Origin: Patescibacteria group bacterium
GTDB lineage: Bacteria; Patescibacteriota; Patescibacteriia; JAHIZJ01
NCBI GenBank assembly: GCA_041650335.1
Contig: JBAZLK010000003.1
Location: 1 to 55,764, forward strand
DNA length: 55,764 nt
Direction: 5' to 3'
Shown here: piece after piece, positions 6,194 to 47,022 of the stretch
How positions within the stretch are numbered: the first letter of the stretch is position 1
How the letters are laid out: every line of letters begins with the position of its first letter
Program-made: the position numbers and the translations under genes
The notes under the pieces: generated by a model
Told to the model about the DNA's origin: nothing
The model's database searches: none
What the model saw: the letters and a program-made list of their open reading frames with translations, nothing else

Positions 6194-6270
6194 GCCAGGG
6201 TAGCTCAGCTGGTTAGAGCGTGGGACTCATAAGCCCAAGGTCGAGGGTTCGAACCCCTCCCCTGGTACCA
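6194..6270 (+). tRNA. tRNA with CAU anticodon, elongator type (Met or lysidine-modified Ile2; cannot be distinguished by eye)
   Basis: GCCAGGG acceptor (G1:U72 wobble). D arm GCTC..GAGC with C11:G24. Anticodon loop CTCATAA. T arm GAGGG-TTCGAAC-CCCTC. Ends ACCA. Confidence 0.85.
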
Positions 6271-13081: not shown

Positions 13082-13110
13082 ACTGCTTCGTACCGTTCGC
13101 GTGTCCGAGA

Positions 13111-13929: not shown

Positions 13930-13980
13930 AGTACGCGTTCTCCTTTAAATTAAAAAGTTAAGCAGCGTAACTAATAGTGT

Positions 13981-14009
13981 ATAGTACGTGAATTTTATTA
14001 ACTTGTCAA
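13981..14009 (-). promoter_or_regulatory. Sigma70-type promoter upstream of the two DsbA-like genes
   Basis: Minus strand: TTGACA (14009..14004), 17 nt, TACTAT (13986..13981). Confidence 0.55.
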
Positions 14010-14113
14010 ATAGCTTTTTCTCCACAGTCAGCCTTTTTACTGAACCTTCAGCTTGCTTTCAGCTTTTTTTATAAAATAATAAAAAAACTCTCGTTAACCC
14101 CTGGTTGGAATCA

Positions 14114-14650
14114 TTACTTTTTACGATATTTCTTTATAACGATTACAATTGCCGTTGCGCCAAGTAACGGCCAGACAATCATAAAAATGGTCAGATAGAG
14201 CGTGCTCTTTTTTTGCAGACCATTACTACTTTCCTGTTCGGGATGCGCTAGATATTCATAATATTGGTCGAGGGCTTGCTGGGGTGAATCGCACCGCACC
14301 GCTTGGCATTGGATGATAGTGTTTTCAATCTCGCTCGTGATAGCGGCGCTATACCCGACATAGACATTCTTACCGACAAAGACAGTCGGAGTCTGCCGGC
14401 TCGGCATCTGATAGAGCGTCAGCAGGTCTTCAAAAATAGCCCGGTTGTCAGTGTCCGTGCTCACGTCAAAGGTCGCTAAAATAATACTATACTTGTTTTT
14501 GAAACCGGCCAGCGTATCATTCATCGATTGACAGCTCGGGCAGCCGCTTTCATAGAAATAAAACACTTCCACCGTTTCTTTCGCCTGGGTGGGTCGAGCG
14601 GCGAGTACCGCCGCAACGACGATAAGGCTGACGAGTAGGTATTTCTTCAT
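14114..14650 (-). CDS. Exported thioredoxin/glutaredoxin-like protein with C-terminal TM anchor
   Basis: 178 aa. Signal peptide MKKYLLVSLIVVAAVLAARPTQA; FYFYESGCPSCQSM (CxxC); C-terminal hydrophobic helix then KKYRKK. Confidence 0.6.
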   Translation of the reverse strand: MKKYLLVSLIVVAAVLAARPTQAKETVEVFYFYESGCPSCQSMNDTLAGFKNKYSIILATFDVSTDTDNRAIFEDLLTLYQMPSRQTPTVFVGKNVYVGYSAAITSEIENTIIQCQAVRCDSPQQALDQYYEYLAHPEQESSNGLQKKSTLYLTIFMIVWPLLGATAIVIVIKKYRKK

Positions 14651-14651
14651 C

Positions 14652-16331: not shown

Positions 16332-16334
16332 AGG

Positions 16335-24267: not shown

Positions 24268-24323
24268 ACTGTATATTTTGCCTGAAATTCGTCATTTTGT
24301 AAAGCAATAATTCTTACAAGCAA

Positions 24324-24351
24324 GCAGGCGAGGATGATCATCCTCGCCTGC
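24324..24351. repeat. Perfect 28-nt palindrome (14-bp stem) at the 3' end of the giant-protein operon; terminator-like without a clean U-tract
   Basis: GCAGGCGAGGATGA|TCATCCTCGCCTGC, located 24 nt downstream of the stop at 24375. Confidence 0.6.
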
Positions 24352-24374
24352 GATTATTTGCCTAATACCTTGTT

Positions 24375-25733
24375 TTATGTCACCAGCGTCAGCCGATTCT
24401 TCTCTTTCTTCACCGGCACCCACTTGAAGCTGCCGGTCACCGAGTCGATATAGGCGACTTTCAAATATTTCCGGCCGAGGAGATTAGCCAGCTTCGTCCC
24501 GATCCGGGCTGAATCCGACTCGAGCATTTGGAGACGCTGTTTTAGTAAATATTGGAGCCAAAGGCTGTAAAACACCGGGTCAGCCGGCTGGACGTCAAAC
24601 TGGGTCAACGATTCTGGTCCGTATTTTTCTTTCAGATAATCCCGAAAAACGCCGTCGGTTTTCATGACCATGGCTAAATCCTGGGTTTTCGCCATCACAT
24701 GCAGGAACGCAATCACGCGATTTCGGTTATTGCCTCGCACCGCCTCTTCAAACTCCGGCCGGATGTTCAGCTGTTCTTGACCGACTCGTTTCAGGATACT
24801 TTTTTCCTCCTCATAGATCGCCTTTTGCTCATCCGGGTTCTGGGAGTAGATTTTCAGGAGATTCTCGACGCCGAGTTGCTTTCGGCCCGTTCCGGCGCCC
24901 GTTATCGGACCGGGTATTGCCGTCGGCGCGTTCGTTGCCTGCAGATCGATTTTATCCAACGCTTCACTGATTACGGCAATACTTTTTTGTGATCTTTCAA
25001 ACTCGTTTTTGTAATTGATCAGGGTGCCTTCCCGAATCGTGCCGATGATATCGGGCAAATCGACCGGGGCGGCTGATTCGTATCCGGCCGGCGTATCGGA
25101 CGGAATTTTCAACCGTTCAGTCAGTTCAAAAAGTACTTGGAGTTTTTCTCGAGATTTCTTTGATAAACGGCGGGTGTTATCGCTTCCAACCAGGTAATTA
25201 GCGAGGTTTACGGGAGCTACCGGATTGAGGCCGAGAACGATGGTTTCATCAAGGAGCCAGTTTTTTATTGATCCGGGCTGTTCCTTGCCGTCTTTCGTTA
25301 CCGTTTCCTCGGTTACAACTTCCGTGTTTTCACGCAAGGCTTCTATTATTTCTTTCTTCAGTTTCTCGCGATCAGGAATCAGGATAATCGTCTCGAGTTT
25401 TTGGCGCACCTTTTCCTTCACGTCATAGCCGAATATTTGATACGTCAGTAAAAATGCATTTTTAAATAGCGGCACGATGATATTCCTGTCATAGAGCGGT
25501 AAGGCAACCCAGCGGCAACGCCGAACAATCGCGACGTAGGACTGGAAGAGTGGTGGATTTTCTGTTTCCAGCTGGGGCTGTAAACGCAAGAGGCGCGTTA
25601 GTGTTTCAGCCAGACGATAGGCTAATTGAAAATCGCCAAAATTTTCAATAAATTGGAGATGGGAATTATACCGCTCCAGCGTTTTCACGTCAGACAAGTT
25701 TGGCACTGGGTTTTTTGAAATTGGCTCGACCAT
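24375..25733 (-). CDS. Hypothetical soluble protein (last gene of the giant-protein operon)
   Basis: 452 aa, no TM or signal peptide seen, no family recognised. The start is 8 nt after the upstream stop. Confidence 0.7.
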   Translation of the reverse strand: MVEPISKNPVPNLSDVKTLERYNSHLQFIENFGDFQLAYRLAETLTRLLRLQPQLETENPPLFQSYVAIVRRCRWVALPLYDRNIIVPLFKNAFLLTYQIFGYDVKEKVRQKLETIILIPDREKLKKEIIEALRENTEVVTEETVTKDGKEQPGSIKNWLLDETIVLGLNPVAPVNLANYLVGSDNTRRLSKKSREKLQVLFELTERLKIPSDTPAGYESAAPVDLPDIIGTIREGTLINYKNEFERSQKSIAVISEALDKIDLQATNAPTAIPGPITGAGTGRKQLGVENLLKIYSQNPDEQKAIYEEEKSILKRVGQEQLNIRPEFEEAVRGNNRNRVIAFLHVMAKTQDLAMVMKTDGVFRDYLKEKYGPESLTQFDVQPADPVFYSLWLQYLLKQRLQMLESDSARIGTKLANLLGRKYLKVAYIDSVTGSFKWVPVKKEKNRLTLVT

Positions 25734-25741
25734 AAATTTGT

Positions 25742-28540
25742 TTACAATGGCACCATTTCGGATCCGGGCGCCGGCTGATCGGGTCCTCTATTTGTTACCG
25801 TTTTATCGATTTCGGACAACTCTCTGTTAATTTGCTCTAAGCGATCTTGGGAATTTTGACCGCCGGGCTCGCCGCTCGGACCGACGTAGCTCTTCAAGGC
25901 GTCGACAAATAAATCATACCGGTCAAGATTATGCTTAATGTAGACATCGTCCTGTTTATAATTTTCAAAACTCCCGATTGCTTTTTGGCTTTTTTCATCC
26001 ATTTCATCCCAATGTTTTCGCCGCGTCGCTTCGTTGTGTCCGGCGTATGTCCGCTGAACGTTTTGCCGCACGATTGCATTTTCACCCTCAAGTAGGTCAC
26101 TGTTTGACTTCACCATATGATAGGCCGTGCTCGGGTTAAACCGGTTATTGGCCATGAGTTTGATAAAGGAAGCCCACTTTTCCGACAATTGCTGGACGCC
26201 ATAGGCGGTCAGCCGGGCGTAGCGTCCCTTCGTCGGATCATTTGGATCGAAATGCCGCTCTTCCATAAAGGCCAAACGGTTGCCTTGACGAATGAGGTTT
26301 TCAAAATCGCGCTTGCCCATTTCAACGTTGACCCGCGCCTGTTGTTCGCTTTTGCCGCGTTGATAAAACGTACCGTCGCTCCGCATGCCGTTAGCCTGAC
26401 CAATGTTCCAGTGATTGGTCGACTCAGCCATATTGCTGACGTCATTTTCCAGCGCCAAAGCCGCTTGTTTATCATCATGCAATTGCTTCATGAGAACGTC
26501 GCGGAAAAACGCATGCGCACCATGGATACTATCGGGTAAATATTCGCCTTTCTTTACGACGGCCGCTCCCTTGCCTTCCCAATGTTCGGGGTTAAAGCCA
26601 TGTTCGGCAATGTAGGCGTCCCGTTCCTTTTCGTCCATGAAGCCGCCAGCATGAACCTTTTTTCCATCCGCGTCAACGCCGCCCATATGTTCATAATAAT
26701 TGTCCGATGAACGAGCAGCGTACATCATCGCCTCATTTTCATGGCCGACCCGCGCCGCTTGCAACATGATTGCCCGGACCGCCGATAAATCGCCACGCGC
26801 CACCGCGCCTTGGATTAATGAGATTAATTCTTCTTCGTTGGTCGTGGCATATTTCTTTGATTCCTCGCTATCAGCCGCCCGACGCATCTGTTGCCCCATA
26901 AAATCACGCGGTTTATACGCTTCCCAGCCGGCCACCTGTTCTTTCAAATTCTGCACGGCGGCTCTTTGGGCATTATATTCCGGATGTTCCGATTCCGCCT
27001 GGGCCAACGCCTCATCATCACTCATGCCACCAGCTCTTAATTCTTCTGCCCGGCGTTGAATGTCGTCTTCAGTTCCACGCAGATGATCCTGGGCTTCGCT
27101 CAACTGGCCTTCTTTACGCTTTTGGAAGGGTTCGCGCACCCAGGCCTTAATCCCTTTATTATAGAACAATCCCTGCATGTACGTTTCGGCAAATCCCGGC
27201 GCGCCAGCCGCTGTCAGTGGCGTCCAGAGCCGACCTTGTCGCAACCGCTCGTCGGCAAAAATATTCCCTTCGCGTTCCTCTCGAGCACGTTTCCGTTGCA
27301 AACCTGCTTTTAAGTTGTTATAAATATTCGCCGGATTCAGCTCGAGACCTTTACCAACACGTTGAAAACGCGTACCGGGTATCGACAGCGCGCCGGATTT
27401 AATTTTACGCGCTCCCCAGCCATACGCGGTTCCCGGCGCCCGAGCCAGCCACGCACCCGTGGCCGCCGCCATCCCGCCAGCCACCTTTGACCCCAGCCCG
27501 CTCCCAATCGTCCGCGTCTGCTGGGCAGCCATGACGGCGGCGTACAGCAAACCAATGGTCACAAAATAACTCATTAAATTGTCCGAAGTCGACATTTCCG
27601 AGATACCCGCGGCTAAACCGGTTGATTCCTGGCCTGCCTCGACGAACGCTCGCGTGCCCTCGGGTATGCCCTGCGTGATCTCCCGACCGACATTGCCTGG
27701 ATTTGTCGCCATAACCGCCATTGCCAGCCATAGATAAAAAGCGATAATTGGCCCAACCGTCACGTAATTACCGAACGTACTCCACCACTGGGTAGCCGCC
27801 TTCTTCAACGGACTAATCATTTCCCCAAGATAGGCCAGGGGCGACAGTACCACTAGGATCCAGAGCACGATGATCCGGCCGAGTAAAATAAAGATGATCA
27901 TGAGCACGGCGCCGATCATGAATAACAACAAGAAGATGCCAAGAGCGACGGCGGCGAATGCCTCGCCGACACTGGCGATCGCGCCCGTATCAGTTTCCTG
28001 AGCAAACATGAGCACCTTCTGCAGCCCGCTCGACGTTGTTAGATTCGCGGCGGCGGCATCGGCGAAACGCGAGGTAAAGGTATTCATGATGACCTGGCAC
28101 AGATCGATGAAAAAGCCGGCGATCGTCTTTGAAAAGTTCAGCAAGAACGCCATGATAATAAACTTCGGCAGGGTGCGTTTATAATGATAGCTCTCGATCC
28201 GCAGCACAGTGCCCCAAGAAATAGCCAGCAGGATCAGAACGAGGAAGACATTGCACATGTCGCGCACCACCACCCAGCCTTTATCAACCGCCGTTGTGTG
28301 GACAAAGTTATTAAACTGGACAAACGCCAGCATGATGTTGATCAGGACAACCAGGAGCTTCCCGAGCAGCGAGAGGATCATAAAGAACGGATAGGTCACC
28401 CACATCAGGATCCGATCGGTGATGCCCATCGCGGCGTGGATCGGCGTCCAGGTCACGAGAATACCGGCCAGCACGAAAATGCAGACGATCAGAATCGTGA
28501 GGCGCTGGGTTTTTCTTGTGGGTTGAAAGTTGATTTTCAT
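25742..28540 (-). CDS. Polytopic membrane protein (possible TrbL/VirB6-like N-terminal domain) with ~580-aa soluble C-terminal region
   Basis: 932 aa. About 7-8 TM helices in the first ~340 aa, with LLNFSKTIAGFFIDLCQVIMNTF reminiscent of TrbL/VirB6-type proteins (tentative). The remainder is charged and helical with no recognised domain. Confidence 0.7.
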   Translation of the reverse strand: MKINFQPTRKTQRLTILIVCIFVLAGILVTWTPIHAAMGITDRILMWVTYPFFMILSLLGKLLVVLINIMLAFVQFNNFVHTTAVDKGWVVVRDMCNVFLVLILLAISWGTVLRIESYHYKRTLPKFIIMAFLLNFSKTIAGFFIDLCQVIMNTFTSRFADAAAANLTTSSGLQKVLMFAQETDTGAIASVGEAFAAVALGIFLLLFMIGAVLMIIFILLGRIIVLWILVVLSPLAYLGEMISPLKKAATQWWSTFGNYVTVGPIIAFYLWLAMAVMATNPGNVGREITQGIPEGTRAFVEAGQESTGLAAGISEMSTSDNLMSYFVTIGLLYAAVMAAQQTRTIGSGLGSKVAGGMAAATGAWLARAPGTAYGWGARKIKSGALSIPGTRFQRVGKGLELNPANIYNNLKAGLQRKRAREEREGNIFADERLRQGRLWTPLTAAGAPGFAETYMQGLFYNKGIKAWVREPFQKRKEGQLSEAQDHLRGTEDDIQRRAEELRAGGMSDDEALAQAESEHPEYNAQRAAVQNLKEQVAGWEAYKPRDFMGQQMRRAADSEESKKYATTNEEELISLIQGAVARGDLSAVRAIMLQAARVGHENEAMMYAARSSDNYYEHMGGVDADGKKVHAGGFMDEKERDAYIAEHGFNPEHWEGKGAAVVKKGEYLPDSIHGAHAFFRDVLMKQLHDDKQAALALENDVSNMAESTNHWNIGQANGMRSDGTFYQRGKSEQQARVNVEMGKRDFENLIRQGNRLAFMEERHFDPNDPTKGRYARLTAYGVQQLSEKWASFIKLMANNRFNPSTAYHMVKSNSDLLEGENAIVRQNVQRTYAGHNEATRRKHWDEMDEKSQKAIGSFENYKQDDVYIKHNLDRYDLFVDALKSYVGPSGEPGGQNSQDRLEQINRELSEIDKTVTNRGPDQPAPGSEMVPL

Positions 28541-28566
28541 TATTTGCCGATGAATCGACGTCTTCG

Positions 28567-31500
28567 TTATTGCGTGATCACGATACTGCCATCAAAAAGG
28601 CTATTGCAGTATGCACCCGCGCCCTGACACTGCCCCTGATTCTGACAGATGCTCAGCGGAGTAGTGCCGCCGCGACAGGCGCCCACGCAGGTACCACCGC
28701 CACAGTTCTGATCGCTCGAACAATCAGCGCCTGTGTTGTCGCAATACCCGCTGCCCTTGTCCCAATTATCTTCAACAAAGACACGGACATAGCAGGTATC
28801 GGGACCGCCGCCGGCTGCTCCGCAATCTCCATAGGTATAGTCATGCGTCAAGGTATGATACGGCCCATTCGGGTCTGACCGCGGCGGGATACCGGGATTC
28901 TTTGGAAATGATTCCCAGTGGTTATTCCCCCAGTCAACAACAAACTTCTTGATCGGCATTTGCTCGGGATCGACCATGGAATTGAAGGTGACTGTGGCCG
29001 TGCCTGACCCATTCTTGATTTGCACCGGTCCGGTCCGGCCGTTGATCTTAATATTGAATACCGTTGGTTGCGCCCAGCAGAAATCAAACGGAAAGCCGGT
29101 GATGTCGTTCGGCCGATTATCCGACAGACCGCCTGAACCATTATGGACTTTGCATTGCTCCATCGCATTAAAGGCATTTGTATAGGCGGCTTTAAACGAA
29201 TTCAGGCTGAGGTCTGGCTCATACTTGGCCTCGGTCGGGTCTGGCGCCGAATCAGGCAAGCCGTTGCAATATTGTAGTTGTTTGCTTTGGCCATGCTGCG
29301 CTTGGATATGGCCGAGCGTGCAATTATCACCCGATCGGATGCCGCCTTCGCATTCCCAGTCGGCACATTCAGCGACACCGTTCGTACACGCACCAGGCAC
29401 TTCACAACAATCGGTTGCGTCTTGGCCGACCCGACATGGATTGCCGAGTAGATCGCCGCCCGTGCAAATACCGTTGTATTGGATACATGACCCGCCGGAA
29501 ATACCCGTGCAATTTGAGTCAGAGGCACAGGCTTGGCCGCACCAATAGCCGCAACCGGGTGGATTGCCGTTTTCATTCCAACCGCAGATCGCCTCGGCGC
29601 AAGAGCCTTCAGGGCAATCCCCCTGTCCTGAGCACGGTCGTCCGGCGTTAGTGCCACCGACGCAGACTTTATCAACACAGGAACTCCCAACCTCGCATGA
29701 GCCGTTTCCGCAGTTGGCGCCGCTGCCGCTGCATCGTTCCTTCTCTTCGCAAACCCCACCGTTACATACGCCGGCGTCACAACGGGCGTTATTTAAGCGG
29801 CAAATATCGGCATTAGCAATGCAGTTTTGTCCGCCCGGACAATAATTTGCCGGCTGATTATTCGAGGCACACAACGTACCCGCCGGGTTCCCGCTGCAGA
29901 CGCCGTCGGCGCAGAAGCCGCTTCGGCAGTCGCATTGGCCGATCGCGTCGTAGGTACATTTTAAGTTGATATTACAGGAATACCCGGCCGGGCAGGCCTT
30001 GGCCGGCAAACACGTGACGGTATGATCGCCAGAACAACGATCCCGGTTCCAACAAACCTGCGCGGGGTTTGCAAATAAACACAGAATACCGGCATTGCAA
30101 TCCGCATCTTGTATGCATTGCGTACCCGGATAATCACCAAAACCGTCGACATTATTATCACAATACTTGGAACAATTTTGTCCGGCATTGCAATCCAAGC
30201 CAGTATCTTTGCAGATTGAGACACTGGCACAGCTACCAATATTCGGACAATCGCAGGCTGCCGGGAGGTTCGATACGCACTTCTTCAGCGCACCTTGTAT
30301 CAAACACGACGAACCGGTCGGACAATTGTTGGCAATGTTGCACTGATCACTGCCGGCGTCTGCTCCACCGACGCACCGTTGGGCGACACAGGCGTTGCCG
30401 CCGCCCGGGCAGGCACCGAGACCGCACGGTATCGTCGGGTCATTGCTGCAGCGCTGGCTCATCTCGCAGACTTCGCCCGGCGCACAGCCGCACGGCGTCA
30501 TCGGACTTGGGTTGTCCGGGTCATTGCTAATACAGAGCTGACCTGAACATACGCCGTCGCCGATATTACACTCATCGTTGTTTTCACACCCAGTTCCTCT
30601 GAACGGGTATTGCGGATCATTGGCCTTGAAGCAGCCCATCGTCGTGATATCGACGCATTTGCCGTCAGACCATACCCAGACGCCGTAAACATCAGCGAAG
30701 ATCCGCTGGATGCGTCGCAATCCTAAACCTCCGCCCGTGGCCGTGTAATTCGTCGGCGGCTGGTTCGGTGGCGGCGGTTCACCCGGAGTTAACGGGCCGC
30801 TGAATTGTTCCGTCGCTGTATAGCGATTTGGGAAGACGTCATCGCAAATAGTTATTTCCGACCGGTCATAACGGAAGCCGGTCCACCAGCCCCAGCTATA
30901 CAACCGTTTATTGGCTTTGTGCTTGCATGAATATGGAACGCCAGCGCGCGGATAGCTAAGATAGTCAACCTCGTCAAAGCCGTGTTCTACACCCCGGTAC
31001 GGCGTCCAGCCCCAGTCCTGAGCGAAGGGCGAGAATGAACCCCCGCCTGTTTGCTGCTGCGGATCCCACCAGAGATAGATGATCGGTTGGTATTTCGAGC
31101 CCAGGTCCTTGGTCATTTCATACGGATTGCCCCAGACTGACGTGTAGTCCGTATCCCAGGTCGCCGGGTCGCCCGGTACGTTGGTCACATTATTCCCGGC
31201 ATGGCCAACTGAACCCGGGTAGGTCAAACTGCCGTATGGATTTGCATCATCGTTAAAGGTAACGCCAAGATCCCAAATCTGGGAGTAATTTCCTTTTATC
31301 CGCTCGGCCCAGGCCTTGTTCTGTCCGCTCGGATCGACTGTCTGACCGATCACATCACAGCGGTATGCGAGCACCTCGCCGATGTTTCCCGGCCAGGCTT
31401 CGCCGAGATGATTATGGCTTAGCCAACCGTCAAACGGTTGCCAAACACCCGGCGCAATTGGATTGAGTCCGTTTTGGTGGTTTGAATCCCACCAGTTATA

Positions 31501-34500
31501 CTGGAGGTTCTCACCGCCGCCGCCGCTGTGTGACCAGTATTCGCAGACATCAGAATCCGGTATTTCGTTCGGCACGCAGACATATAGGCATTTGTCCTGA
31601 TGGCCGCCGCCGCGGATGGCTTTTTCACAGAGCTTGCGATGATAGCCGAGCTCTTCGCAGGAATAGTGATTAGCATAATTGCAATTGCCATTGGAGAGAC
31701 CGTACGGCCGCCGGAACTCGTAGAACGATCCTTGGAGGCAGTAGTAGAGCGGCGCATCGCCAAAATAGCCGACCAGCTGATCCGTATCATCGGCTTCGCC
31801 GGAAATGACGTCAACCGGCCACCACTGCAGACAGATACTGCGGTTTTTCGGGTCGGTTTCGAGGCAGTAGCCTTTCCAGCCGCGATAAATCTTCCGCGCC
31901 GTACCGGTGGTCTTGGTATAGTCGCATGACAATGAGTTTGACTCCGGATAGAGCCGGCACGACCTGACCACAAAACGGGGATCGTTTGGAAGCTCGGGCG
32001 GCATCTGCGTGGATTTCTTTTCCAGCAAGGTCTGGAACATCACGTCATCCACCTGGAATTTTTGCAGTCCGGCGTTTCCACCCGCGTCCACAATACTGAG
32101 ATAGGTATTTTTAAATACCCCGTTGACAACCATCGCATTGCCAAGCGGCAAGGTAAAGATCTGCCAATTCATCGTGGCCGTAACCGTGCCAAAAATCTGA
32201 CACGGTCCCGCATCATCGTTATAGCAAAGCTGAACTTTTATCTTCGAATCTTGATCCGCTCGCAATTTCAGACTAATGACCAGCGGCTGGTTATCAAATA
32301 TGAGTGAATCGAGATTGATCTTCGCTCCCGAATCAGCGCCGGTCAAACCGCCCACCTCCATCACCCAGTTCTGTTTTGTCGGATCAAGCGGGTCTTCGAC
32401 CGCCTTCAGGGCGTTCGGCGGGTTGATGTTCCGCGGCTCCCAGGGCGAGGAGTTCTTAAACTGAAAGTCGTAATTCGGCAAATTCATACCAATGCCGATT
32501 TCTTGCATTGACCCGGTTGGGTAATACCCGTGGATGACCTGACAGACATTAGTCTCGCCGACACACTGATCGCAATAGGTCGGATTATTGAGATCGCACG
32601 CCGTATTATTTGGGCAAACGCCGCCGGGACAGTCGTCTGGTACCTGGCAGAGCATGCCATCCTTATCGCCGCCCTGACAGATGCCGTCGCGCCAGCAGAC
32701 CGTGTTTGAGTCTTCGCTGCACCGCCAATTATAGCCGACCCGCGCGTAGCCTGAATAATTTACGGAGTTGTCAACTTCCGTTTTATGATCAAATGTCAGA
32801 TCGGTCGGGTGCGCCGGCGGCGAAACCAGTCGATTCATATACTCGACGGTCGGGGTGGCATTTTCAAATTTCGGCGTTCGAATGCAATGAGAGGTCAAAC
32901 CACAATCGGCATCGATGAGACAGGGTCGAGAGGGATCGTTTTCACATTGCCCTTCACCGACCGGCTTGATGCACTGGCCGGACGTGCCGAGCTGACGACA
33001 GTTCCCGATATCATAACAGGTTAGTTCCTTCGAACCGTCGCTTTTCTCCACTTCGTAGCTCGTCTTGCAGTACAACCACTGATTACAGACCCGATCACGA
33101 TCAACTTTATAGACGCTGTTGGAATCGGCCGTGCATCCACCGCCGCCCGCGCACGTCTCCGGCGTTCCTCGGTTTGTATCCAGTTTCGCGTATGTTAAAT
33201 CGCTATCATAGGTAAGACCCTGTGAATTGGTGGTGTCGTTGAATAGCATGCACCCTTCATCTTTATTGACCACGCCAGCGCAACTCGCCGAGTCAAGCGT
33301 ATTATCAATATAATAGTAAGGTTGGCAGCCAGACAGATACTCGGGCGGGAGGGCGTCGTTCTGATAGGGCCGGCACTGTTGATCCGTCCGGTAAAACTCG
33401 CCCTGGTCGTTGTACTCAGCCCGGCAATTTGCGTTGCAGCCTTGGAAAACACAGGTGCTTTGAGGACAGTCAGCGTTGATTTTACAATTCTGCCCTCCGT
33501 TCGGGCCAGCTAAACAGACGCCGTCTGGCGTTACTTTATCTGGTGACGGCGTTTGGGGATCGCGATACTCACTGCAACCGCTGGCGCCATTTTGACATTT
33601 ACCAACCCAATACTCGGTACATTTCTGACCGGCTGGACACTGGCCATCGTCTTGGCATATCTTTTCTGCACAATAGCCGTCATTCGAGCTGTTCGCGTCG
33701 GCACAGCCATATGCGGCATCGTTTGGATCGGCGTCAGAATCGCAGGCTTGCCCGGCGCGTATTCCGCCATAACAGACTTCCGTCAAGTCGGAGCATAGGC
33801 CGTCGTTATTGCCGCTCGCCTGATCACAGCCATAGAGCGGATCTTTCGGATCAACTTGCGAATTGCATTTTTCTCCGGCCCGATAGCCGCCACGGCACGT
33901 CTCTTGCAGCCGCGGTCCACAGACCTTCGTTGGCATCGGCGATTCTGGATATTGCTCGCAGAGGCCACCGTTACATGAGGCCAGATCCCCCGGACCGAAG
34001 CACGCCGCGCCCGGATTATTTCCGCCAATACAGGAGTATTTTTGGACGGGACAGAATTTATCCGTTCCGCTCTTCAGCCAGGTATCATAAACCTCGCCTT
34101 GATATTTGAGACTCTTACGGAAATCGCAGACTTGGGCGTTCGGCTGCTTAAATTGCGTATAACTTCCGGAATCAGCGCCAATTTGGAATTGATCGCAGAA
34201 TGTTTCTTCTTTCGTACAGAGTGTTTGGTCGTACTCGTCGGGATTATTGATGAGATAGGTCGTCTTGAATTTCGTGACCCGGCCTTCCACGTCAAAACTC
34301 GGCAAACCAAGGCCTTCGCAACCCTTCGCCTTGGCTTGGCATTTATACTTCGCCGCGTTGACGACCGGCCGGACATTGTCCGCTTCTACTTTTACGCCTT
34401 TGTCTGCCGGCTCATAGGGGAAAGCTGTGGTCGAGTTGTGCGTTTCAATAGCGGCGGTACAGCCGACTTTCTCGGGCCGACAGAGATTCGTGAAGCTCTG

Positions 34501-37500
34501 AATATATTGATCGTTCCCTTCGCTGTCCGTATAGAGCGAGCAACCAACCCATTGGGCTGGGCATTCCTGATAGGTTTTGTACCGGAGATAAACGCTATCG
34601 CGGGTTTCCCAAACCGTAATATTATCAATAAAGAAGCCGGCGCCCGCTTCGATCGTCAGTACCTCGGCCGGGTCAGGCGCGCCAACAAAATGGGCAGGGC
34701 CGAGAACATAATGATTCCAATTCTCGTTGGTCGCAGTCACGCCAGCAACCGGCACAAAGTTTACTGCCGGGTTCGGTCCAAATTTCACCGTGATCTGGGC
34801 ATCGTCCGCTTCGGCCTTTGCCCAGAATTCAATCATGTAATCCTTGCCATCTTCAACCAGCTCACTAACAGCCGTTGACATATTGGGGGTTACCTTGGCT
34901 GAGCCGCCGCCGGCCTTGAGAGATTCCGTGCTCCAGGTGACGTTACCGGTCCAGCCGGCCGTATCGCCATCGTCAAAATTATCCGTGATGATCTTCCGAA
35001 TATTGTAACCAGTGCTCCCCCGATACTCGCGGCAGGCTGCCTGGTTAGCCGGACAGCGCACGCCCTGGTCGGGGATTGCATTATAAATTGTGTTATCGAG
35101 GGTATTCCGGAGCGGGTGGCAGTCTTCCGAACAGGTGATGGTGTTAAACATCGGGCAATAGTAGCTGTTGCCGCTCTGGTCATAGTATTGGGTGCAGCCG
35201 AAATCGTTCGGATCGCAACCGCACGCCCCGCCAGCCGTCATTTCGGGCGGTGAATTTGTGCTTCCTTTCAAATCCTCTGCGACCAGCTCAAATCCGTTGA
35301 CGTCATCGCCTTCCCAGCGATAGTAGGTCGCGCAGGTCGGATTCGGTTGTTCGCAGCGGCGGATGGCGCTGTAATACTCAAGCCCCTCGCCGCCCTGGGC
35401 GACGATATCGAGATTGGTATATTCTTCACAACCGACATAGGCCGCGTCGCAGGTTTTTCCCGTCGTGGCGATAAAAGTCGTCGATAATATTCCCGACCGG
35501 TCAACTAACGCCTGGTCAGTGCCATTTGAGACGGGCATCTGCTGATAATCTTTGCACCCGACAAATTCAGCCGGACAATAATCATCCGCGGTCACCACCG
35601 CCGGCACCTTATCGCCTTTTTCATCAGGCGTGTACATATCGCACCCGACTTCATCTACCCGGCAAGCGATCGAATCCTTCGACAAGCTGACGCTCACCTG
35701 GTCAAATTGTCCGCCGCTCAATAAAACCCTGATAAACGCCGCGTCCGGTTTATCGGCCTCAACCCCGAAGGTGACAAAATCCCATCGGCCGGTGTTTGTT
35801 TCACGCTGAGCGCGCGGATCGGCGCCAGCGACCGTCAGGTCACAGTCGGGAACCACGGCCCGGTTCTTATCACGACATTCGGTGAGGAGCGGGGTAGCGC
35901 CGCCGCCTTTCACCCAAGCCGAAACGTCATAGCGCGTACCATAGACGATCGGTACGTCCTGATATCCGCCGGAGCCGGAGTAATAATCCCCATATCCTTG
36001 CGTGGCATCGATGGCGGTACCAACCCAGCCGTCGGCTTGATGGTCGCCGGCGACATAATTGTCATTTGTGTCGTCTTTATAATAATCATGCCCGCTGTCG
36101 ATACTGAAGCTGGAATTCGAAATGTAATTTTCCGCTTTATTTTTCAAATACGCTTGATTAGCCGTGTCATACATCGCATAGGACGTGACCTCGCCCAGCT
36201 CAAGCTGAACGCCGTCAAGCGTAATCTCGCAATTCGGAAAAATTTTAAAAGCCACTTGGTTTGGATTTGAAGTCGGCGCAGGCGGATCCGTGTCGCCGAC
36301 CTCGCCAAACTGGCCGGTCACAACAACTCTCGACCAGCCGTCCGCGCTCGCCCGGTGGGAATCCAGCGGATCGACGTAATTCATCCAAGCCCCGCCGGTG
36401 TGGTTTCCGCCGATCTCAACGTGGATATTGTCACACGCGCCTTTTGCAAAGAAAGATGCGGTAAATTTCTTATGATAGACCGGCGATTCAGTGTCAAAGT
36501 AATACGCCGCCTCGCCGCTTGTCCGAACGGCGTAGGTACCATCCGTAGCATCGGTTGTTGCAAAGGTGTCACCGGCGAACTCCCATTTCCACTGCGAGTA
36601 ATCGGCCGCGAAGACGTCTGGATCGTTATCGTCGGCTGTCCCGGTAAACGTTTCAAAGCTTGAATTGGCCGCGAGATTACTCCCGGCGATAACGGGAATA
36701 TATTCCGTGCAACCACGATCACCGCTCGAGCACTTCATGACATTATTATCCAATCGGATCTGATCGCCGGCCGCGAGATAGTCAGGCTCGGCCGGATTGA
36801 CCAAATGCTCCGGGGAGCTGCAGACAAAGCCTTTTTCCTTATTATCATAATTCTGGCAGTACCATTGACAGCCGGCGTTATCCGCCGAGCAGGAATCGTG
36901 ATTGACCGTGCTCTCAATGAAAGATACTTCCTTGTTCTTTGAATCAATAAAGGTTTGGCAGGTATTTTCATAGGCCTGACAGGCGGTCCCGGAAAATCGC
37001 CAGATCGGTTTTTCCTCAGCGCAGTAGCCATAGAACAAGCAGGTGCCGTCATCGGCTTCCTGAATGCAGGTACGTTCATCGGCACAGTAGCTTCCCCGTT
37101 CAACCTGCCGCGACGGCGTGTCGCGAGAATCGATTACCCCGTCGCCGGTGGTATCATCCAGTTGGACCAGCGCATCAGCCACCAGCTGCTCGCCCGGCCC
37201 TTCTTTTTTGCAATATGTTTCGGGCGCCTTCAGCACCCAGTTTGGATCAATCAGGTGATAAAACGGATTATCTATTTGAACGCCCTGGGGATTAGTCCAT
37301 TTTTCATCATCATACAGATCGACCAGCTCTTTCAACCCAAATCCCTGGGCTGGCACAACGTAATTTTTTATATAGAGCGCGGCCGCTTCCCAGGTCGAGG
37401 GGATGACGCGATATTTACGCAGGATAACCAGGCTGCGGTAGGGATAGCCGTTGGTATATTCCGGCTCTTGTCCATTTTGATCAAAACCAAACGTGCCCGT

Positions 37501-38622
37501 ACTGTTGAGCGAGCCTTCTTCAAGAGCTTGTTTGACCGTGATGCGGCGATTAATCGCGTCCGCGAAGTTCTCGTCGATCACGCAATTATTGGTCACGCGG
37601 TACTCGCTCGGACAGGCGGCGAGTTCGCTCACGATATCGACCGGTCCGCGCGCTCGAAAAGTTGGTCGGACAAGTTCGGCAAAGTACCGTTTGGCCGCGG
37701 AGACGCCGCTTGTTGTCATTTCAAAGCTATCTCCGCCTGACGGAAGGACGCCTTTTTCAAAAATTGTTTTGTAGAGCCGGCTGATCAAGGTGTTGGTGAA
37801 CAAGGAAAACGCATCGGCCAGCGGCTCGCCCGTATAGACTTTGTCGGCGGCCGTACTTTCTTGGATTGACAGGTTGGCAACCGTGTTGACGTATTCTTTT
37901 GGCGTTTTCGTAATGCCGGTCACCAAATCCTTCACGCCGAGAAAAGAGCTGGCTGTCTGCTCTAAACGCATTTTTGCTTCCGCTTTTGCGACCGCCTTTT
38001 CGGTCTCATCCATGATCAAGAAGTAAGCGCCGATTTGCGATGACTTAACATCAAAGACGTGCTGAAAATCGACCATGTCCTGAAGCGACATCTTGGATAT
38101 CTTGTTGAAATTCTTGGCCATGTTCGTCACCGGACAGGAAGCTTTCGGCTCGAGTGTTTGCTTGGCGTAGACACCGAGCTTTAAACGAATGGCCGGATCG
38201 AATGATATCGTACACAGGCTCTCGCCGAAAAGGCTCTGAAATTCCGTATCGAGAAATTCGCCAGCCGCGCCGTCGGCAACCTGAGTGAGATACTTTCCGG
38301 GGTTTGAGATGAAGAGGGGTTTCTGCCCTTTACCGCCCGAGCCGATGTAGACGGCGGTATCATAGGCGATCTTATTTAAGAAATATGAAAGACCTTTTTT
38401 CCAAGCCACGGCCGCGGCGCTTTTCAGTACCTTATATATGGCGTCAGTGACATTGCGATGCTCTTGAGCAACGTCTTCAACGGGAATAACGGCTTGAACC
38501 TTGGTTGGGACAAAATAAAACACTCCCAAGCTAACAACGAGTGAGAGCGATAGCATAACGCCGACGACAAGAGCGCGTAATTTTTTAGCTCGGTCTTTTG
38601 TTTGAGAATGGCTCTGTGACAT
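28567..38622 (-). CDS. Giant (3351 aa) membrane-anchored, extremely Cys-rich surface protein with CBM4_9-like and PKD-like modules
   Basis: Single uninterrupted ORF. N-terminal anchor KKLRALVVGVMLSLSLVVSLGVFYFVP. At least four jelly-roll/CBM-like modules start near aa 648 (NSSFETFTG), 830 (NSSFSIDSG), 1210 (DNFDDGDTAGW) and 2047 (YDFQFKNSSPW). Dense Cys arrays occur throughout. A PKD-like module lies near aa 3165-3260 (VTFNSMVDPEQMPIKKFVVDWGNNH...HTLTHDYTYG). Confidence 0.9.
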   Translation of the reverse strand: MSQSHSQTKDRAKKLRALVVGVMLSLSLVVSLGVFYFVPTKVQAVIPVEDVAQEHRNVTDAIYKVLKSAAAVAWKKGLSYFLNKIAYDTAVYIGSGGKGQKPLFISNPGKYLTQVADGAAGEFLDTEFQSLFGESLCTISFDPAIRLKLGVYAKQTLEPKASCPVTNMAKNFNKISKMSLQDMVDFQHVFDVKSSQIGAYFLIMDETEKAVAKAEAKMRLEQTASSFLGVKDLVTGITKTPKEYVNTVANLSIQESTAADKVYTGEPLADAFSLFTNTLISRLYKTIFEKGVLPSGGDSFEMTTSGVSAAKRYFAELVRPTFRARGPVDIVSELAACPSEYRVTNNCVIDENFADAINRRITVKQALEEGSLNSTGTFGFDQNGQEPEYTNGYPYRSLVILRKYRVIPSTWEAAALYIKNYVVPAQGFGLKELVDLYDDEKWTNPQGVQIDNPFYHLIDPNWVLKAPETYCKKEGPGEQLVADALVQLDDTTGDGVIDSRDTPSRQVERGSYCADERTCIQEADDGTCLFYGYCAEEKPIWRFSGTACQAYENTCQTFIDSKNKEVSFIESTVNHDSCSADNAGCQWYCQNYDNKEKGFVCSSPEHLVNPAEPDYLAAGDQIRLDNNVMKCSSGDRGCTEYIPVIAGSNLAANSSFETFTGTADDNDPDVFAADYSQWKWEFAGDTFATTDATDGTYAVRTSGEAAYYFDTESPVYHKKFTASFFAKGACDNIHVEIGGNHTGGAWMNYVDPLDSHRASADGWSRVVVTGQFGEVGDTDPPAPTSNPNQVAFKIFPNCEITLDGVQLELGEVTSYAMYDTANQAYLKNKAENYISNSSFSIDSGHDYYKDDTNDNYVAGDHQADGWVGTAIDATQGYGDYYSGSGGYQDVPIVYGTRYDVSAWVKGGGATPLLTECRDKNRAVVPDCDLTVAGADPRAQRETNTGRWDFVTFGVEADKPDAAFIRVLLSGGQFDQVSVSLSKDSIACRVDEVGCDMYTPDEKGDKVPAVVTADDYCPAEFVGCKDYQQMPVSNGTDQALVDRSGILSTTFIATTGKTCDAAYVGCEEYTNLDIVAQGGEGLEYYSAIRRCEQPNPTCATYYRWEGDDVNGFELVAEDLKGSTNSPPEMTAGGACGCDPNDFGCTQYYDQSGNSYYCPMFNTITCSEDCHPLRNTLDNTIYNAIPDQGVRCPANQAACREYRGSTGYNIRKIITDNFDDGDTAGWTGNVTWSTESLKAGGGSAKVTPNMSTAVSELVEDGKDYMIEFWAKAEADDAQITVKFGPNPAVNFVPVAGVTATNENWNHYVLGPAHFVGAPDPAEVLTIEAGAGFFIDNITVWETRDSVYLRYKTYQECPAQWVGCSLYTDSEGNDQYIQSFTNLCRPEKVGCTAAIETHNSTTAFPYEPADKGVKVEADNVRPVVNAAKYKCQAKAKGCEGLGLPSFDVEGRVTKFKTTYLINNPDEYDQTLCTKEETFCDQFQIGADSGSYTQFKQPNAQVCDFRKSLKYQGEVYDTWLKSGTDKFCPVQKYSCIGGNNPGAACFGPGDLASCNGGLCEQYPESPMPTKVCGPRLQETCRGGYRAGEKCNSQVDPKDPLYGCDQASGNNDGLCSDLTEVCYGGIRAGQACDSDADPNDAAYGCADANSSNDGYCAEKICQDDGQCPAGQKCTEYWVGKCQNGASGCSEYRDPQTPSPDKVTPDGVCLAGPNGGQNCKINADCPQSTCVFQGCNANCRAEYNDQGEFYRTDQQCRPYQNDALPPEYLSGCQPYYYIDNTLDSASCAGVVNKDEGCMLFNDTTNSQGLTYDSDLTYAKLDTNRGTPETCAGGGGCTADSNSVYKVDRDRVCNQWLYCKTSYEVEKSDGSKELTCYDIGNCRQLGTSGQCIKPVGEGQCENDPSRPCLIDADCGLTSHCIRTPKFENATPTVEYMNRLVSPPAHPTDLTFDHKTEVDNSVNYSGYARVGYNWRCSEDSNTVCWRDGICQGGDKDGMLCQVPDDCPGGVCPNNTACDLNNPTYCDQCVGETNVCQVIHGYYPTGSMQEIGIGMNLPNYDFQFKNSSPWEPRNINPPNALKAVEDPLDPTKQNWVMEVGGLTGADSGAKINLDSLIFDNQPLVISLKLRADQDSKIKVQLCYNDDAGPCQIFGTVTATMNWQIFTLPLGNAMVVNGVFKNTYLSIVDAGGNAGLQKFQVDDVMFQTLLEKKSTQMPPELPNDPRFVVRSCRLYPESNSLSCDYTKTTGTARKIYRGWKGYCLETDPKNRSICLQWWPVDVISGEADDTDQLVGYFGDAPLYYCLQGSFYEFRRPYGLSNGNCNYANHYSCEELGYHRKLCEKAIRGGGHQDKCLYVCVPNEIPDSDVCEYWSHSGGGGENLQYNWWDSNHQNGLNPIAPGVWQPFDGWLSHNHLGEAWPGNIGEVLAYRCDVIGQTVDPSGQNKAWAERIKGNYSQIWDLGVTFNDDANPYGSLTYPGSVGHAGNNVTNVPGDPATWDTDYTSVWGNPYEMTKDLGSKYQPIIYLWWDPQQQTGGGSFSPFAQDWGWTPYRGVEHGFDEVDYLSYPRAGVPYSCKHKANKRLYSWGWWTGFRYDRSEITICDDVFPNRYTATEQFSGPLTPGEPPPPNQPPTNYTATGGGLGLRRIQRIFADVYGVWVWSDGKCVDITTMGCFKANDPQYPFRGTGCENNDECNIGDGVCSGQLCISNDPDNPSPMTPCGCAPGEVCEMSQRCSNDPTIPCGLGACPGGGNACVAQRCVGGADAGSDQCNIANNCPTGSSCLIQGALKKCVSNLPAACDCPNIGSCASVSICKDTGLDCNAGQNCSKYCDNNVDGFGDYPGTQCIQDADCNAGILCLFANPAQVCWNRDRCSGDHTVTCLPAKACPAGYSCNINLKCTYDAIGQCDCRSGFCADGVCSGNPAGTLCASNNQPANYCPGGQNCIANADICRLNNARCDAGVCNGGVCEEKERCSGSGANCGNGSCEVGSSCVDKVCVGGTNAGRPCSGQGDCPEGSCAEAICGWNENGNPPGCGYWCGQACASDSNCTGISGGSCIQYNGICTGGDLLGNPCRVGQDATDCCEVPGACTNGVAECADWECEGGIRSGDNCTLGHIQAQHGQSKQLQYCNGLPDSAPDPTEAKYEPDLSLNSFKAAYTNAFNAMEQCKVHNGSGGLSDNRPNDITGFPFDFCWAQPTVFNIKINGRTGPVQIKNGSGTATVTFNSMVDPEQMPIKKFVVDWGNNHWESFPKNPGIPPRSDPNGPYHTLTHDYTYGDCGAAGGGPDTCYVRVFVEDNWDKGSGYCDNTGADCSSDQNCGGGTCVGACRGGTTPLSICQNQGQCQGAGAYCNSLFDGSIVITQ

Positions 38623-38629
38623 GGTCGAA

Positions 38630-39472
38630 CTATTGATTTACACCGTTGATCGACTCAAGAAAGATGGCCTTGAGCGTTGCGTCGTCAATCTGCGACAGCG
38701 TTTCCGCCGGCACGCCCGAGGCAATCATTAATTCCCTGATTTCGGCCGGCGTAAGCTGGCTCAGTTGCGCCAGTGTCTGCTGATCGGTTTCGTTCAAATT
38801 CGAGGCATTCGTATTGTTCGTTACCGGCAGATTGGTGTTGCTGTTTGTCGACTCTTGGGAAAGCGCCTCGGCATACAGCTGCCGGAGCTCGACGTCGGAC
38901 AAGGCATTGAGCGTTTCGGCTGGCACGCCAGCCCCCTTCAGCGCATCCCGGAGCGCGCTTATGGAAACGTCCTCTGGAGCAGGGTTGGTATTCGAGTTTC
39001 CAGTGGTGTTCGTGTTGCCGTTTTGGTTGCTATTTGTGTTTGTTTGTTGATTGGTATTTTCCCCCGCGTTGACGTTCGTGTTTTGGTTGATATTGTATAA
39101 ATTTGCGAGATTGCTATAGCCATTCGTGTTCGTCACTGCAATGGTGCAGGATTTTCCCTGCGGACAATTCGGATCGGTGCCATTTGCCAGCTCCGTGTTA
39201 TCGGAAATCCCGTCGCTGTCAGAATCAGCCAGATAGGGAGAGGTGCGATGAATTTTCAATTCATCAAAATCGGAAAGGGTATCATTGTCGGTATCCTTGT
39301 CGCGCAAAGCAAGGATTTCTTTCCGCGCATTTACCGAATCAGAGGGTGACTCGGTCAACCCGGCAAACGGACTTTTTAGAGAGCGCGAGAGCTGAAAAAT
39401 TCCCAAACCTATTCCGAAACAGCCCACCACAAAAATGAGCGACCAGAGAGTTTTTGGCGAGACTTCTTTCAT
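38630..39472 (-). CDS. Membrane-anchored protein with thrombospondin type-3 (Ca-binding) repeats, Asn/Thr-rich spacer and GVPAETL repeats
   Basis: 280 aa. N-terminal TM. DKDTDNDTLSDFDE and DSDSDGISDNTELANGTDP are DxDxDGxxDxxE-type repeats. N/T-rich low-complexity stretch. Two copies of a (A/S)GVPAETL(N/S)x(L/I)(S/D)D..L motif. Confidence 0.8.
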   Translation of the reverse strand: MKEVSPKTLWSLIFVVGCFGIGLGIFQLSRSLKSPFAGLTESPSDSVNARKEILALRDKDTDNDTLSDFDELKIHRTSPYLADSDSDGISDNTELANGTDPNCPQGKSCTIAVTNTNGYSNLANLYNINQNTNVNAGENTNQQTNTNSNQNGNTNTTGNSNTNPAPEDVSISALRDALKGAGVPAETLNALSDVELRQLYAEALSQESTNSNTNLPVTNNTNASNLNETDQQTLAQLSQLTPAEIRELMIASGVPAETLSQIDDATLKAIFLESINGVNQ

Positions 39473-39545
39473 TTTGTTTATTGGCTTTTGTTTGGACTTT
39501 AAATATAGAAACTAAACTCAGAAACTGTGTATATTTTACCCCACC

Positions 39546-39574
39546 ATTATATCACAATAGCCCTCGTGTGTCAA
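39546..39574 (-). promoter_or_regulatory. Perfect-consensus sigma70 promoter of the giant-protein operon
   Basis: Minus strand: TTGACA (39574..39569), exactly 17 nt, TGaTATAAT (extended -10; TATAAT = 39551..39546). About 65-nt leader to the ATG at 39472. Confidence 0.65.
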
Positions 39575-39575
39575 C

Positions 39576-46845: not shown

Positions 46846-47022
46846 GATCACGACACAATTAATTAATCGACGGCTCGTCTTCAAAAGCATATCATTTTTT
46901 TAGGGTTTTGCCACGTGAAAATCCATCATACGACTATACCTTGACAGTACCGGCCTCACATGATAACCTACTAAATATCCAAACGAAGTGATGCGATAAC
47001 GTAGCTAATATTAGCCAATTAA

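Follow-up and report, generated by a model that had tools for sequence, protein, structure and literature searches.

The giant gene and its product

A stretch of 55764 nucleotides from a Patescibacteria group bacterium (GenBank assembly GCA_041650335.1, contig JBAZLK010000003.1; the whole stretch is termed the window) was analysed with a focus on one giant gene and on the operon to which it belongs. The giant gene is located at 28567..38622 on the minus strand, and every segment of it for which coordinates are given below lies on that strand. It is an intact ATG-to-stop open reading frame (ORF) of 3351 codons plus a stop codon, contains 0 internal stops and takes up 10056 of the 55764 bases of the window (18.0 %); a first-pass annotation, made from the sequence alone, had described the same single ORF of 3351 amino acids (aa) and the same share of 18 %. 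A frame of 3351 open codons is far beyond chance, because random sequence holds about 3 stops per 64 codons.

The product contains 192 Cys (5.7 %) and 10.2 % Gly. Its Cys residues are spread unevenly: the start is nearly Cys-free, as had been claimed, with 5 Cys in aa 1-500; bursts follow, the density reaches 15 per 100 aa across aa 2700-3100, and the Cys-rich tail noted at the end of the protein is present as 7 Cys within the final 51 residues. The bursts had been placed from about residue 480 onwards, and the string quoted as an example, CADERTCIQEADDGTCLFYGYCAEE, was found at aa 513-537, with Cys residues that are invariant in the family. The Trp/Gly/Tyr-rich region is likewise real; the Trp density is 5-7 per 100 aa over aa 2300-2600.

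Integrity of the reading frame

Independent assemblies carry the same product. The exact 280-aa upstream neighbour precedes the giant ORF in two of them, in which the ORF measures 3351 aa (Logan SRR8542065) and 3329 aa from a later start (ENA ERZ27247363). The relative L003, 95.6 % identical (ca. 96 %), is also exactly 3351 aa long. A DNA repeat search of the giant gene revealed no tandem or long direct repeats, so that the feature by which giant genes are usually misassembled is missing.

One observation favours the view that the ORF arose by faulty assembly or annotation or is a pseudogene in decay: in two low-coverage metagenome contigs, L001 (4.8×) and L002, the homologue is broken by frame changes while remaining collinear by tblastn. 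Against this stand an intact ORF at 59 other loci, the closed Kerfeldbacteria chromosome CP181398.1 among them, the agreement of the independent assemblies, the lack of DNA repeats able to cause misjoins, and a ratio of non-synonymous to synonymous substitution rates (dN/dS) of 0.049 relative to L003 with just four single-codon indels. An artefact is effectively refuted and can be excluded for practical purposes. The first-pass annotation had named two findings that would speak against its reading; neither frameshift nor misassembly was seen, and no known family of giant proteins claims the protein.

Homologues and selective constraint

Loci of relatives were collected by searching one genome per species with a pattern derived from a 5-sequence alignment; 158 species were found to have a relative, and 80 loci were retrieved. 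All of these loci are on Patescibacteria-type metagenome-assembled genomes (Falkowbacteria, Buchananbacteria, Kerfeldbacteria, Parcubacteria), CP181398.1 included. The 80 loci lie on 80 different assemblies, so that the giant locus is apparently single in each genome. One intact ORF of 2185-3808 aa is present at the 59 loci that are not cut by a contig end.

An exhaustive HMMER search of 1.84 billion cluster representatives with a profile of the N-terminal region yielded 2081 representatives at E≤1e-3 and 1189 at E≤1e-30; among the best 150, most are 2400-3350 aa long and match at the N-terminus. Word-indexed homologue searches gave 10, 2 and 24 matches, all of them to fragments of ≤1391 aa. 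In public records the relatives are named "hypothetical protein" or "carbohydrate binding domain-containing protein, partial". The giant proteins thus form a large, unnamed and very widespread family in the ultra-small Patescibacteria. No description of the family was found in a literature search that was not exhaustive. The first-pass annotation mentions neither this large conserved family nor the operon with two membrane proteins that is described below.

Some operon carriers bear misleading bin labels (L027, L068, L079, and many entries among L003-L082 designated 'TPA_asm: uncultured Gammaproteobacteria'). The labels Zixibacteria, Omnitrophota and Alpha- or Gammaproteobacteria on operon-bearing bins probably reflect mis-binned or mislabelled contigs.

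Selection was measured on a codon alignment of the window gene with L003, which contains four compensating single-codon indels. Overall values were dN = 0.023 and dS = 0.48, which give the ratio of 0.049 mentioned above. Beyond the first 45 residues, dN/dS lies between 0.014 and 0.114 in every module, also in lineage-specific parts (0.062 in the insert at aa 816-985; 0.074 in the Cys/Gly array). An excess of replacements is confined to the first 45 residues, with 8 non-synonymous changes against 1 synonymous. The giant gene is under strong purifying selection, as had been supposed from its size.

Predicted jelly-roll modules

In a scan of the whole protein, Pfam CBM_4_9 (PF02018), a carbohydrate-binding module (CBM) family, was matched at aa 1211-1281 with 31.5 bits against a gathering score of 25.9 (E 2.7e-7); the score falls to 21.8 bits when the 400-aa segment is scanned by itself. 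The family was also matched in 14 of 16 full-length relatives (best E 6.3e-20). Dockerin_1 was matched in 4 of the 16, and beyond CBM_4_9 nothing else recurs. For the window protein, Pfam (400-aa segments at E≤5), NCBIfam and PHROGs returned CBM_4_9 and nothing more.

The matched region is jelly roll C (aa 1206-1345, 34588..35007). Two further CBM4_9-like jelly rolls, A (aa 646-815, 36178..36687) and D (aa 2041-2200, 32023..32502), were recognised by aligning family profiles with hhalign: A and C align at 97.5 % probability (E 5.9e-12), C and D at 97.5 % (E 7.7e-12), and A and D at 91.2 %. By these profile alignments the three CBM4_9-type modules A, C and D are mutually homologous. At least four such modules had been claimed, near aa 648, 830, 1210 and 2047; three of them stand, but the one near aa 830 does not. 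This segment, module B (aa 816-985, 35668..36177), is CBM-like by motif only and aligns with the CBM profiles at 3.4 % (C), 12.7 % (A) and 49 % (D). Being confined to the 3 closest relatives, with an occupancy of 6-19 % among the 59 relatives, it is classed as a lineage-specific insert.

Structures were predicted by using AlphaFold2 (AF2) on shallow alignments for aa 1-600 (11 sequences) and aa 40-820 (27 sequences); the mean predicted local distance difference test (pLDDT) was 46 and 56, respectively, and only aa ∼320-529 were modelled with confidence. Foldseek matches of the aa 40-820 model comprise CBM6-type and porphyran-binding CBMs, a lectin, receptor-binding domains of binary toxins and host-specificity proteins of phage tails, at E ∼1e-3 to 1e-4 over 135-160 aligned columns with 13-22 % identity, for a model of modest quality. 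The alignments are one jelly roll long, and the matches were assigned on this ground to module A, which is predicted as beta strands but mostly at a pLDDT of 35-58.

Cysteine-rich framework

Conserved core and inserts were judged from a 60-sequence alignment (59 relatives and the window protein). The core comprises aa 51-650, 1000-1500, 1650-1900, 2200-2300, 2400-2500 and 3150-3300; lineage-specific inserts occupy aa 850-950, 1550-1650, 1900-2000 and the whole Cys/Gly array at 2650-3150. Sixty Cys positions are conserved at ≥70 %. The Cys-rich spacers said to separate the jelly rolls are borne out, and a recurrent unit was recognised in the protein: thirteen C-x6-C hairpins with the motif C-x5-[GA]-C-x2-[YFL], in which the Cys residues are invariant or nearly so (e.g. 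CSADNAGCQWY, CDAAYVGCEEY, CPANQAACREY).

The spacer at aa 986-1205 (35008..35667) has hairpins at 987, 1016, 1058, 1136 and 1190 and includes the most conserved stretch of the whole protein, aa 1051-1200. That at aa 1346-1520 (34063..34587) has hairpins at 1354, 1381, 1428 and 1469. The three hairpins of aa 987-1065 align in register with the three of aa 1381-1476 (hhalign 79.9 %, E 1.4e-5); a triple-hairpin unit has therefore been duplicated on both flanks of the central jelly roll. The Cys-rich region that follows (aa 1521-2040, 32503..34062) contains the core segment aa 1650-1900 and has no Pfam match; its lineage-specific stretches, aa 1550-1650 and 1900-2000, carry C-x-GG-x3-G-x2-C motifs.

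Downstream of jelly roll D, a Cys motif block (RSCRLYP..C.Y....GW.GYCLE.DP....CL.WWPVD) leads into the Trp/Tyr/Gly-rich region (aa 2201-2650, 30673..32022). A 39-sequence profile of aa 2195-2650 matched nothing in PDB or Pfam. The Cys/Gly array (aa 2651-3140, 29203..30672) had been reported with a length of about 470 aa. Its composition, about 15 Cys per 100 aa, is as described, but it is an insert outside the family core, with an occupancy of about 10-15 % among the 59 relatives. Its internal similarity is weak, and no family match was obtained in Pfam or NCBIfam. Known bacterial Cys-rich repeats, such as the Myxococcus cysteine-rich repeat, were not detected (NCBIfam, 0 families at E≤1; Pfam, nothing at E≤5 for aa 2281-3351). 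The cystine-knot reading found no supporting evidence: the one 'knot' match obtained, to spatzle, has a meaningless E-value of 9.3. The AF2 models of the Cys-rich parts are of low confidence.

N-terminal and C-terminal domains

Read from the translation, aa 1-45 (38488..38622) consist of a basic stretch and a hydrophobic segment of ∼22 residues that ends in VQA|V. A transmembrane (TM) anchor had been assigned here; the hydrophobic segment is indeed present, but aa 1-45 are more probably a cleavable Sec signal peptide, because an A-x-A consensus stands directly after the hydrophobic segment in the relatives.

The N-terminal domain that defines the family spans aa 46-480 (37183..38487) and comprises a helical part, with the motif AYDTA..GSGGKGQKPLF, followed by an alpha/beta part, with GYPYRSLVILRKYRIIP..W and LIDPNWVLKAP. 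It is among the best-conserved blocks of the protein and includes invariant residues. It was not matched in Pfam, NCBIfam, PHROGs or PDB sequences, and a Foldseek search of the PDB gave no analogue, also for the confident part at aa ∼320-529. Next to it, aa 481-645 (36688..37182) hold an EF-hand/dockerin-like loop (DTTGDGVIDSRD) and the first Cys-rich module, in which Cys 513, 519, 528, 534, 548, 555, 578, 585, 631 and 638 are invariant.

The protein ends in a beta-rich domain with the motif VDWG(D/N)..H.Y.Y..DNW(G/D) and the Cys-rich tail (aa 3141-3351, 28570..29202). The proposal of a PKD-like module was not upheld: PKD (PF00801/PF18911) is unmatched in the window protein at E≤5, and among 45 relatives a match (E 0.002-0.008, below the cut-off) was obtained in no more than 2-3; designed Ig domains were matched weakly, at E 0.007. 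From these sequence matches and the WG(D/N)..H.Y.Y motif, an Ig/PKD-like sandwich is possible. The C-terminus, ...AYCNSLFDGSIVITQ, has neither an LPXTG motif nor a hydrophobic tail. For about 80 % of the protein (about 2700 residues), the N-terminal domain included, searches of Pfam, NCBIfam, PHROGs and PDB sequences returned no match.

Operon organisation and partner proteins

The giant gene is preceded on the minus strand by a gene for a 280-aa protein (38630..39472), which was matched by Pfam TSP3_bac (E 1e-5) and adjoins the giant gene in 68 of the 80 loci; 7 nt separate its stop codon from the giant ATG. An alignment of 20 relatives revealed one TM helix, CPxGxxC, an Asn/Thr-rich linker, a helical C-terminal repeat and an invariant double Ca-binding loop (DTDxDGLSDYDE, about 23 residues, DSDSDGxSDKxE) of dockerin-like layout.

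This double loop, which resembles dockerin and TSP3 sequences, bears on the suggestion that the giant protein is a secreted, cellulosome-like scaffold for polysaccharide processing, with CBMs aimed at the substrate and other domains that are catalytic or dock enzymes. CBM_4_9 itself and the Dockerin_1 matches in some relatives point the same way, and the large conserved domains of the giant could conceal an enzyme. No signature of a glycoside hydrolase, lyase, esterase or cohesin was found, however, in the window protein or in 16 relatives, Dockerin_1 is unmatched in the window protein, and the extreme Cys content and the hairpin repeats indicate a structural rather than a catalytic role. We regard such a scaffold as very improbable.

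Downstream, 26 nt after the giant stop codon, starts a gene for a 932-aa protein (25742..28540, minus strand), which follows the giant gene in 52 of the 80 loci; the loci that lack an adjoining partner are mostly cut by contig ends. About 7 TM helices lie within aa 1-350, followed by a long tail that is helical and charged. Pfam TrbL/VirB6 (PF04610) was matched in 4 of 20 relatives of this protein (best E 3.4e-5); the window copy is unmatched, and a PDB profile search with the 932-aa protein did not return VirB6. TolA-type matches to the tail were rejected as low-complexity matches. The fourth gene (24375..25733, minus strand) encodes a 452-aa protein with no TM segment and no family match; relatives of it were seen at 4 loci, within limited flanks.

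A sigma-70 consensus promoter (39546..39574, minus strand) is located upstream of the 280-aa gene, with TTGACA, a spacing of 17 nt and TG-TATAAT (12 of 12 matches). By comparing motif positions with gene positions, an exact TTGACA-N16-18-TATAAT was found in the same place in 18 diverged relatives (L003-L006, L013, L018, L019, L021, L030-L032, L035, L043-L046, L061, L071). Right after the 452-aa gene, a hairpin with a 12-bp stem (8 G-C pairs; 24324..24351) is, from its sequence, the likely terminator, so that promoter and hairpin define a transcription unit of about 15.2 kb. A perfect promoter that is also conserved suggests strong expression, and, judging by this motif, the operon is probably highly expressed.

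The gene order LeuRS, (MFS), Sua5, (MFS), KsgA, 280-aa, giant, 932-aa is kept among giants that are 30-55 % identical. Housekeeping-like conservation, fixed synteny and the very low dN/dS fit a role in the cell's own envelope better than a determinant of host specificity. The giant could, on this account, be an S-layer-like scaffold, either an abundant coat or a wall tether, whose CBMs bind the cell's own peptidoglycan or wall polysaccharide and whose membrane partners form the base. The class-wide presence with apparently one locus per genome, the constant location next to LeuRS, Sua5 and KsgA in most loci, the very strong purifying selection in every module and a conserved, perfect consensus promoter, which implies abundance, all favour it. 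So does the contrast with the hypervariable FhaB-type proteins of >5000 aa in the same class (PMC11809585). Yet no SLH, S-layer or other known wall-binding domain was found in the window protein or in 16 relatives, and a multi-lectin protein of 3351 aa with lineage-specific insertions (module B, the Cys/Gly array, some dockerins) suggests an outward-facing binding organelle. CBM4_9 modules are, moreover, known mainly for soluble or amorphous beta-glucans and xylans, not for peptidoglycan. An own-envelope scaffold is judged less likely than not, yet it is the most serious of the competing explanations.

Neighbouring envelope genes

A run of envelope genes at 11155-17951 (minus strand) encodes a 538-aa membrane protein (phrog_5156), a VirD4/TrwB-like coupling ATPase, a thioredoxin, two DsbA-like proteins and Lgt. 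The three exported thioredoxin-fold genes of this run (12287..14650, minus strand), two DsbA-like and one membrane-anchored thioredoxin with CPSC, lie within about 16 kb of the giant gene and outside its operon; they are candidates for the oxidative-folding machinery of the 192-Cys protein. A DsbA-like gene is likewise found near the relative of the giant in L001. The CPSC thioredoxin also has a weak TraF-like match.

The VirD4-type coupling ATPase lies about 9 kb downstream of the giant gene and, together with the TrbL/VirB6 matches in 4 of 20 relatives of the 932-aa protein (best E 3.4e-5), raises the question of a type IV secretion-like apparatus, of which the giant would be an extracellular adhesin or a wall-spanning extension and the 7-TM protein a VirB6/TrbL-type channel subunit. 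PrgH and TcpH, the VirB6 analogues of Gram-positive bacteria, also combine a polytopic N-terminus with a long tail, as the 932-aa protein does. A published survey did not find a PrgB-like adhesin for the Patescibacteria system (PMC12102498), a place that the giant could take. Against this link, the 7-TM copy of the window has no TrbL match and its PDB profile search no VirB6, no VirB4 was found among the scanned ORFs of the 55.8-kb window, and the operon is set among housekeeping genes; in these genomes, the distance between VirD4-like genes and virB4 is usually large, and the former may have been exapted (PMC12102498). A type IV role of the giant appears improbable.

Other genes in the window

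SecDF is encoded in the window; in SecD (20123-21787, minus strand), the N-terminal and P1-head parts are separated by a PPIC-type peptidyl-prolyl isomerase (Rotamase) domain (aa 143-235). The LeuRS gene (43369-46890, minus strand; 1173 aa) has internal Pfam matches to NUDIX (aa 611-725) and Ham1p_like (aa 265-339), and the LeuRS of L001 also contains NUDIX; from the sequence, NUDIX looks like an inserted nucleotide-sanitising domain. A 378-aa protein (17899-19035, minus strand) consists of only sigma-70 region 4 and HARE-HTH, which is unusual for a sigma-like factor. A ParB/ParA pair (1715-3362, minus strand) opens the window and is followed on the plus strand by tRNA-Leu(caa) and two tRNA-Met (3492-3578, 5643-5718 and 6194-6270). 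A plus-strand gene (47023-48396) that lies 8 kb upstream of the operon, and is opposite to it in orientation, encodes a protein with two LysM domains and an M23 peptidase domain; wall hydrolases of this kind have been discussed as a VirB1 substitute in Patescibacteria (PMC12102498).

Comparison with known systems

The likeness to CBM_4_9 lies in module C, which scores above the gathering threshold, in the homology of A and D to C, and in a model that superposes weakly on CBM jelly rolls. Characterised CBM_4_9 modules are appended to glycoside hydrolases, whereas the giant has no detectable catalytic domain and its modules are set within about 2700 residues of Cys-rich sequence. The jelly rolls of binary toxins (iota Ib, CDTb RBD1) and of phage-tail host-specificity proteins, the best Foldseek matches of the aa 40-820 model, resemble it at the level of the shared fold only.

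A parallel by description is offered by the Cys-rich exported proteins of Peribacteria and other members of the candidate phyla radiation (PMC4736985): these are large and unannotated, have a signal peptide and about 6-7 % Cys, and have been proposed to provide rigidity and attachment. They form a multi-gene cluster with strain variation, whereas the giant is a single gene at a fixed operon and position under purifying selection; compared in the same descriptive way, it differs further by its own N-terminal domain and by the C-x6-C hairpin repeats.

With the giant repeat adhesins (RTX/Bap-type LapA, SiiE and MpIBP; FhaB-type) the protein shares a length of thousands of residues, surface exposure as predicted here, and ligand modules on a long extender. 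Its extender is non-repetitive and presumably disulfide-based, unlike theirs. Membership of this group was rejected: no tandem repeats were found in DNA or protein, no Big or RTX match in Pfam, and no TPS/FhaB domain or type I signal, and the N-terminal signal is probably of the Sec type instead. FhaB-type exoproteins have been proposed for Patescibacterium danicum, and those giants lack full-length homologues (PMC11809585), in contrast to the >1000 of the present family.

Several other assignments were tried and discarded. Sortase anchoring through LPXTG does not apply to a C-terminus with neither the motif nor a hydrophobic tail. An S-layer (SLH) protein was rejected for want of any SLH or S-layer family match in the window protein or 16 relatives, and a scaffoldin/dockerin system for want of a cohesin match, with Dockerin_1 in only 4 of 16 relatives. 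A target of a diversity-generating retroelement was dismissed as well: no template/variable repeat pair was found in 24000-40000 and no reverse transcriptase among the scanned ORFs, and dN/dS is low.

The 932-aa partner resembles VirB6/TrbL and PrgH/TcpH in having a polytopic N-terminal membrane domain and a long soluble tail. It differs in that the window copy is below detection and has no virB4 neighbourhood, and a giant exported partner is foreign to the type IV systems described (PMC12102498).

Proposed function

The reading that we prefer, tentatively and at somewhat less than an even chance, is that the giant is a disulfide-stapled, lectin-bearing surface fibre that serves attachment, either to a partner cell or to a matrix of glycans. 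The protein would be the large extracellular subunit of a three-part envelope complex conserved in Patescibacteria. It would be exported via Sec, and its ∼190 Cys would be oxidised by exported DsbA-type enzymes; disulfides are expected because the protein has an export signal and invariant Cys pairs, and DsbA genes are its neighbours. The conserved N-terminal domain might hold it at the membrane, assisted by the 280-aa protein with its Ca-binding loops and by the 7-TM protein. From there it would project as a long, protease-resistant stalk built of C-x6-C hairpin units and Cys- and Trp-rich blocks, with the three CBM4_9-type jelly rolls spaced along it and the beta-rich C-terminal domain at its end. 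The jelly rolls may bind a polysaccharide that is conserved across hosts and would in this way tether the tiny cell to its partner or to glycan material. It is fair to read the evidence as pointing to a stalk that is exported, stabilised by disulfides and able to bind glycans; another cell's envelope polysaccharide, the ligand named in the first-pass annotation, is one candidate.

A fibre fits the biology of these bacteria, because cultivated Patescibacteria are epibiotic, and an earlier proposal of attachment exists for Cys-rich giants. The cultivated representatives are epibionts in need of adhesins (PMC10633639), and an attachment role was proposed for large Cys-rich exported proteins of related bacteria (PMC4736985).

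Several points weigh against a fibre for attachment. The identity of 95.6 % at a dS of 0.48 and the dN/dS of 0.014-0.114 in the CBMs fit a housekeeping role in the envelope at least equally well. Host-facing adhesins usually diversify. CBM-fold modules can, besides, also bind proteins or be purely structural. The strong conservation, that of the CBMs included, is compatible with a ligand that is itself conserved, and the wall of the cell would fit this description equally well. For about 80 % of the sequence, no relative with a known function could be detected, and stalk shape and anchoring are conjectural because the AF2 models are poor (mean pLDDT 46 and 56).

A more far-reaching version may be considered, decidedly unlikely as it is: the operon for the Ca-loop protein, the giant and the 7-TM protein would encode a class-wide envelope nanomachine not recognised before, in which a VirB6-like platform bears a disulfide-stapled lectin fibre of ∼3000 residues; the fibre would tether the cell to its host and also be part of the conduit by which these metabolically dependent cells draw material from it, and the N-terminal domain and the hairpins would be new folds.

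Significance

Large Cys-rich exported proteins are already a known theme in bacteria related to Patescibacteria, and the giant is not new in kind. What appears to be undescribed within the literature searched is this particular family, with its N-terminal domain, the C-x6-C repeat, the layout with three lectins, the operon with two membrane partners and the conserved promoter. The protein holds about 2700 conserved residues that have no known relatives, among them a repeated disulfide hairpin unit.

Outside the Saccharibacteria, how Patescibacteria recognise and hold their hosts is poorly understood; most are uncultivated, and the survey of their type IV systems came up without an adhesin (PMC12102498). 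The giant is conserved and not hypervariable, and it can therefore be studied as a family: deep alignments should aid structure prediction, and the three lectin modules can be expressed and tested. It could also provide a surface label by which Patescibacteria cells are sorted or imaged. Its gene is among the largest in genomes of ∼1 Mb, is represented in >1000 clusters, keeps one operon and one position, has a consensus promoter and is under purifying selection; for these reasons the giant family is a strong candidate for an apparatus that serves host contact or the envelope throughout the class.

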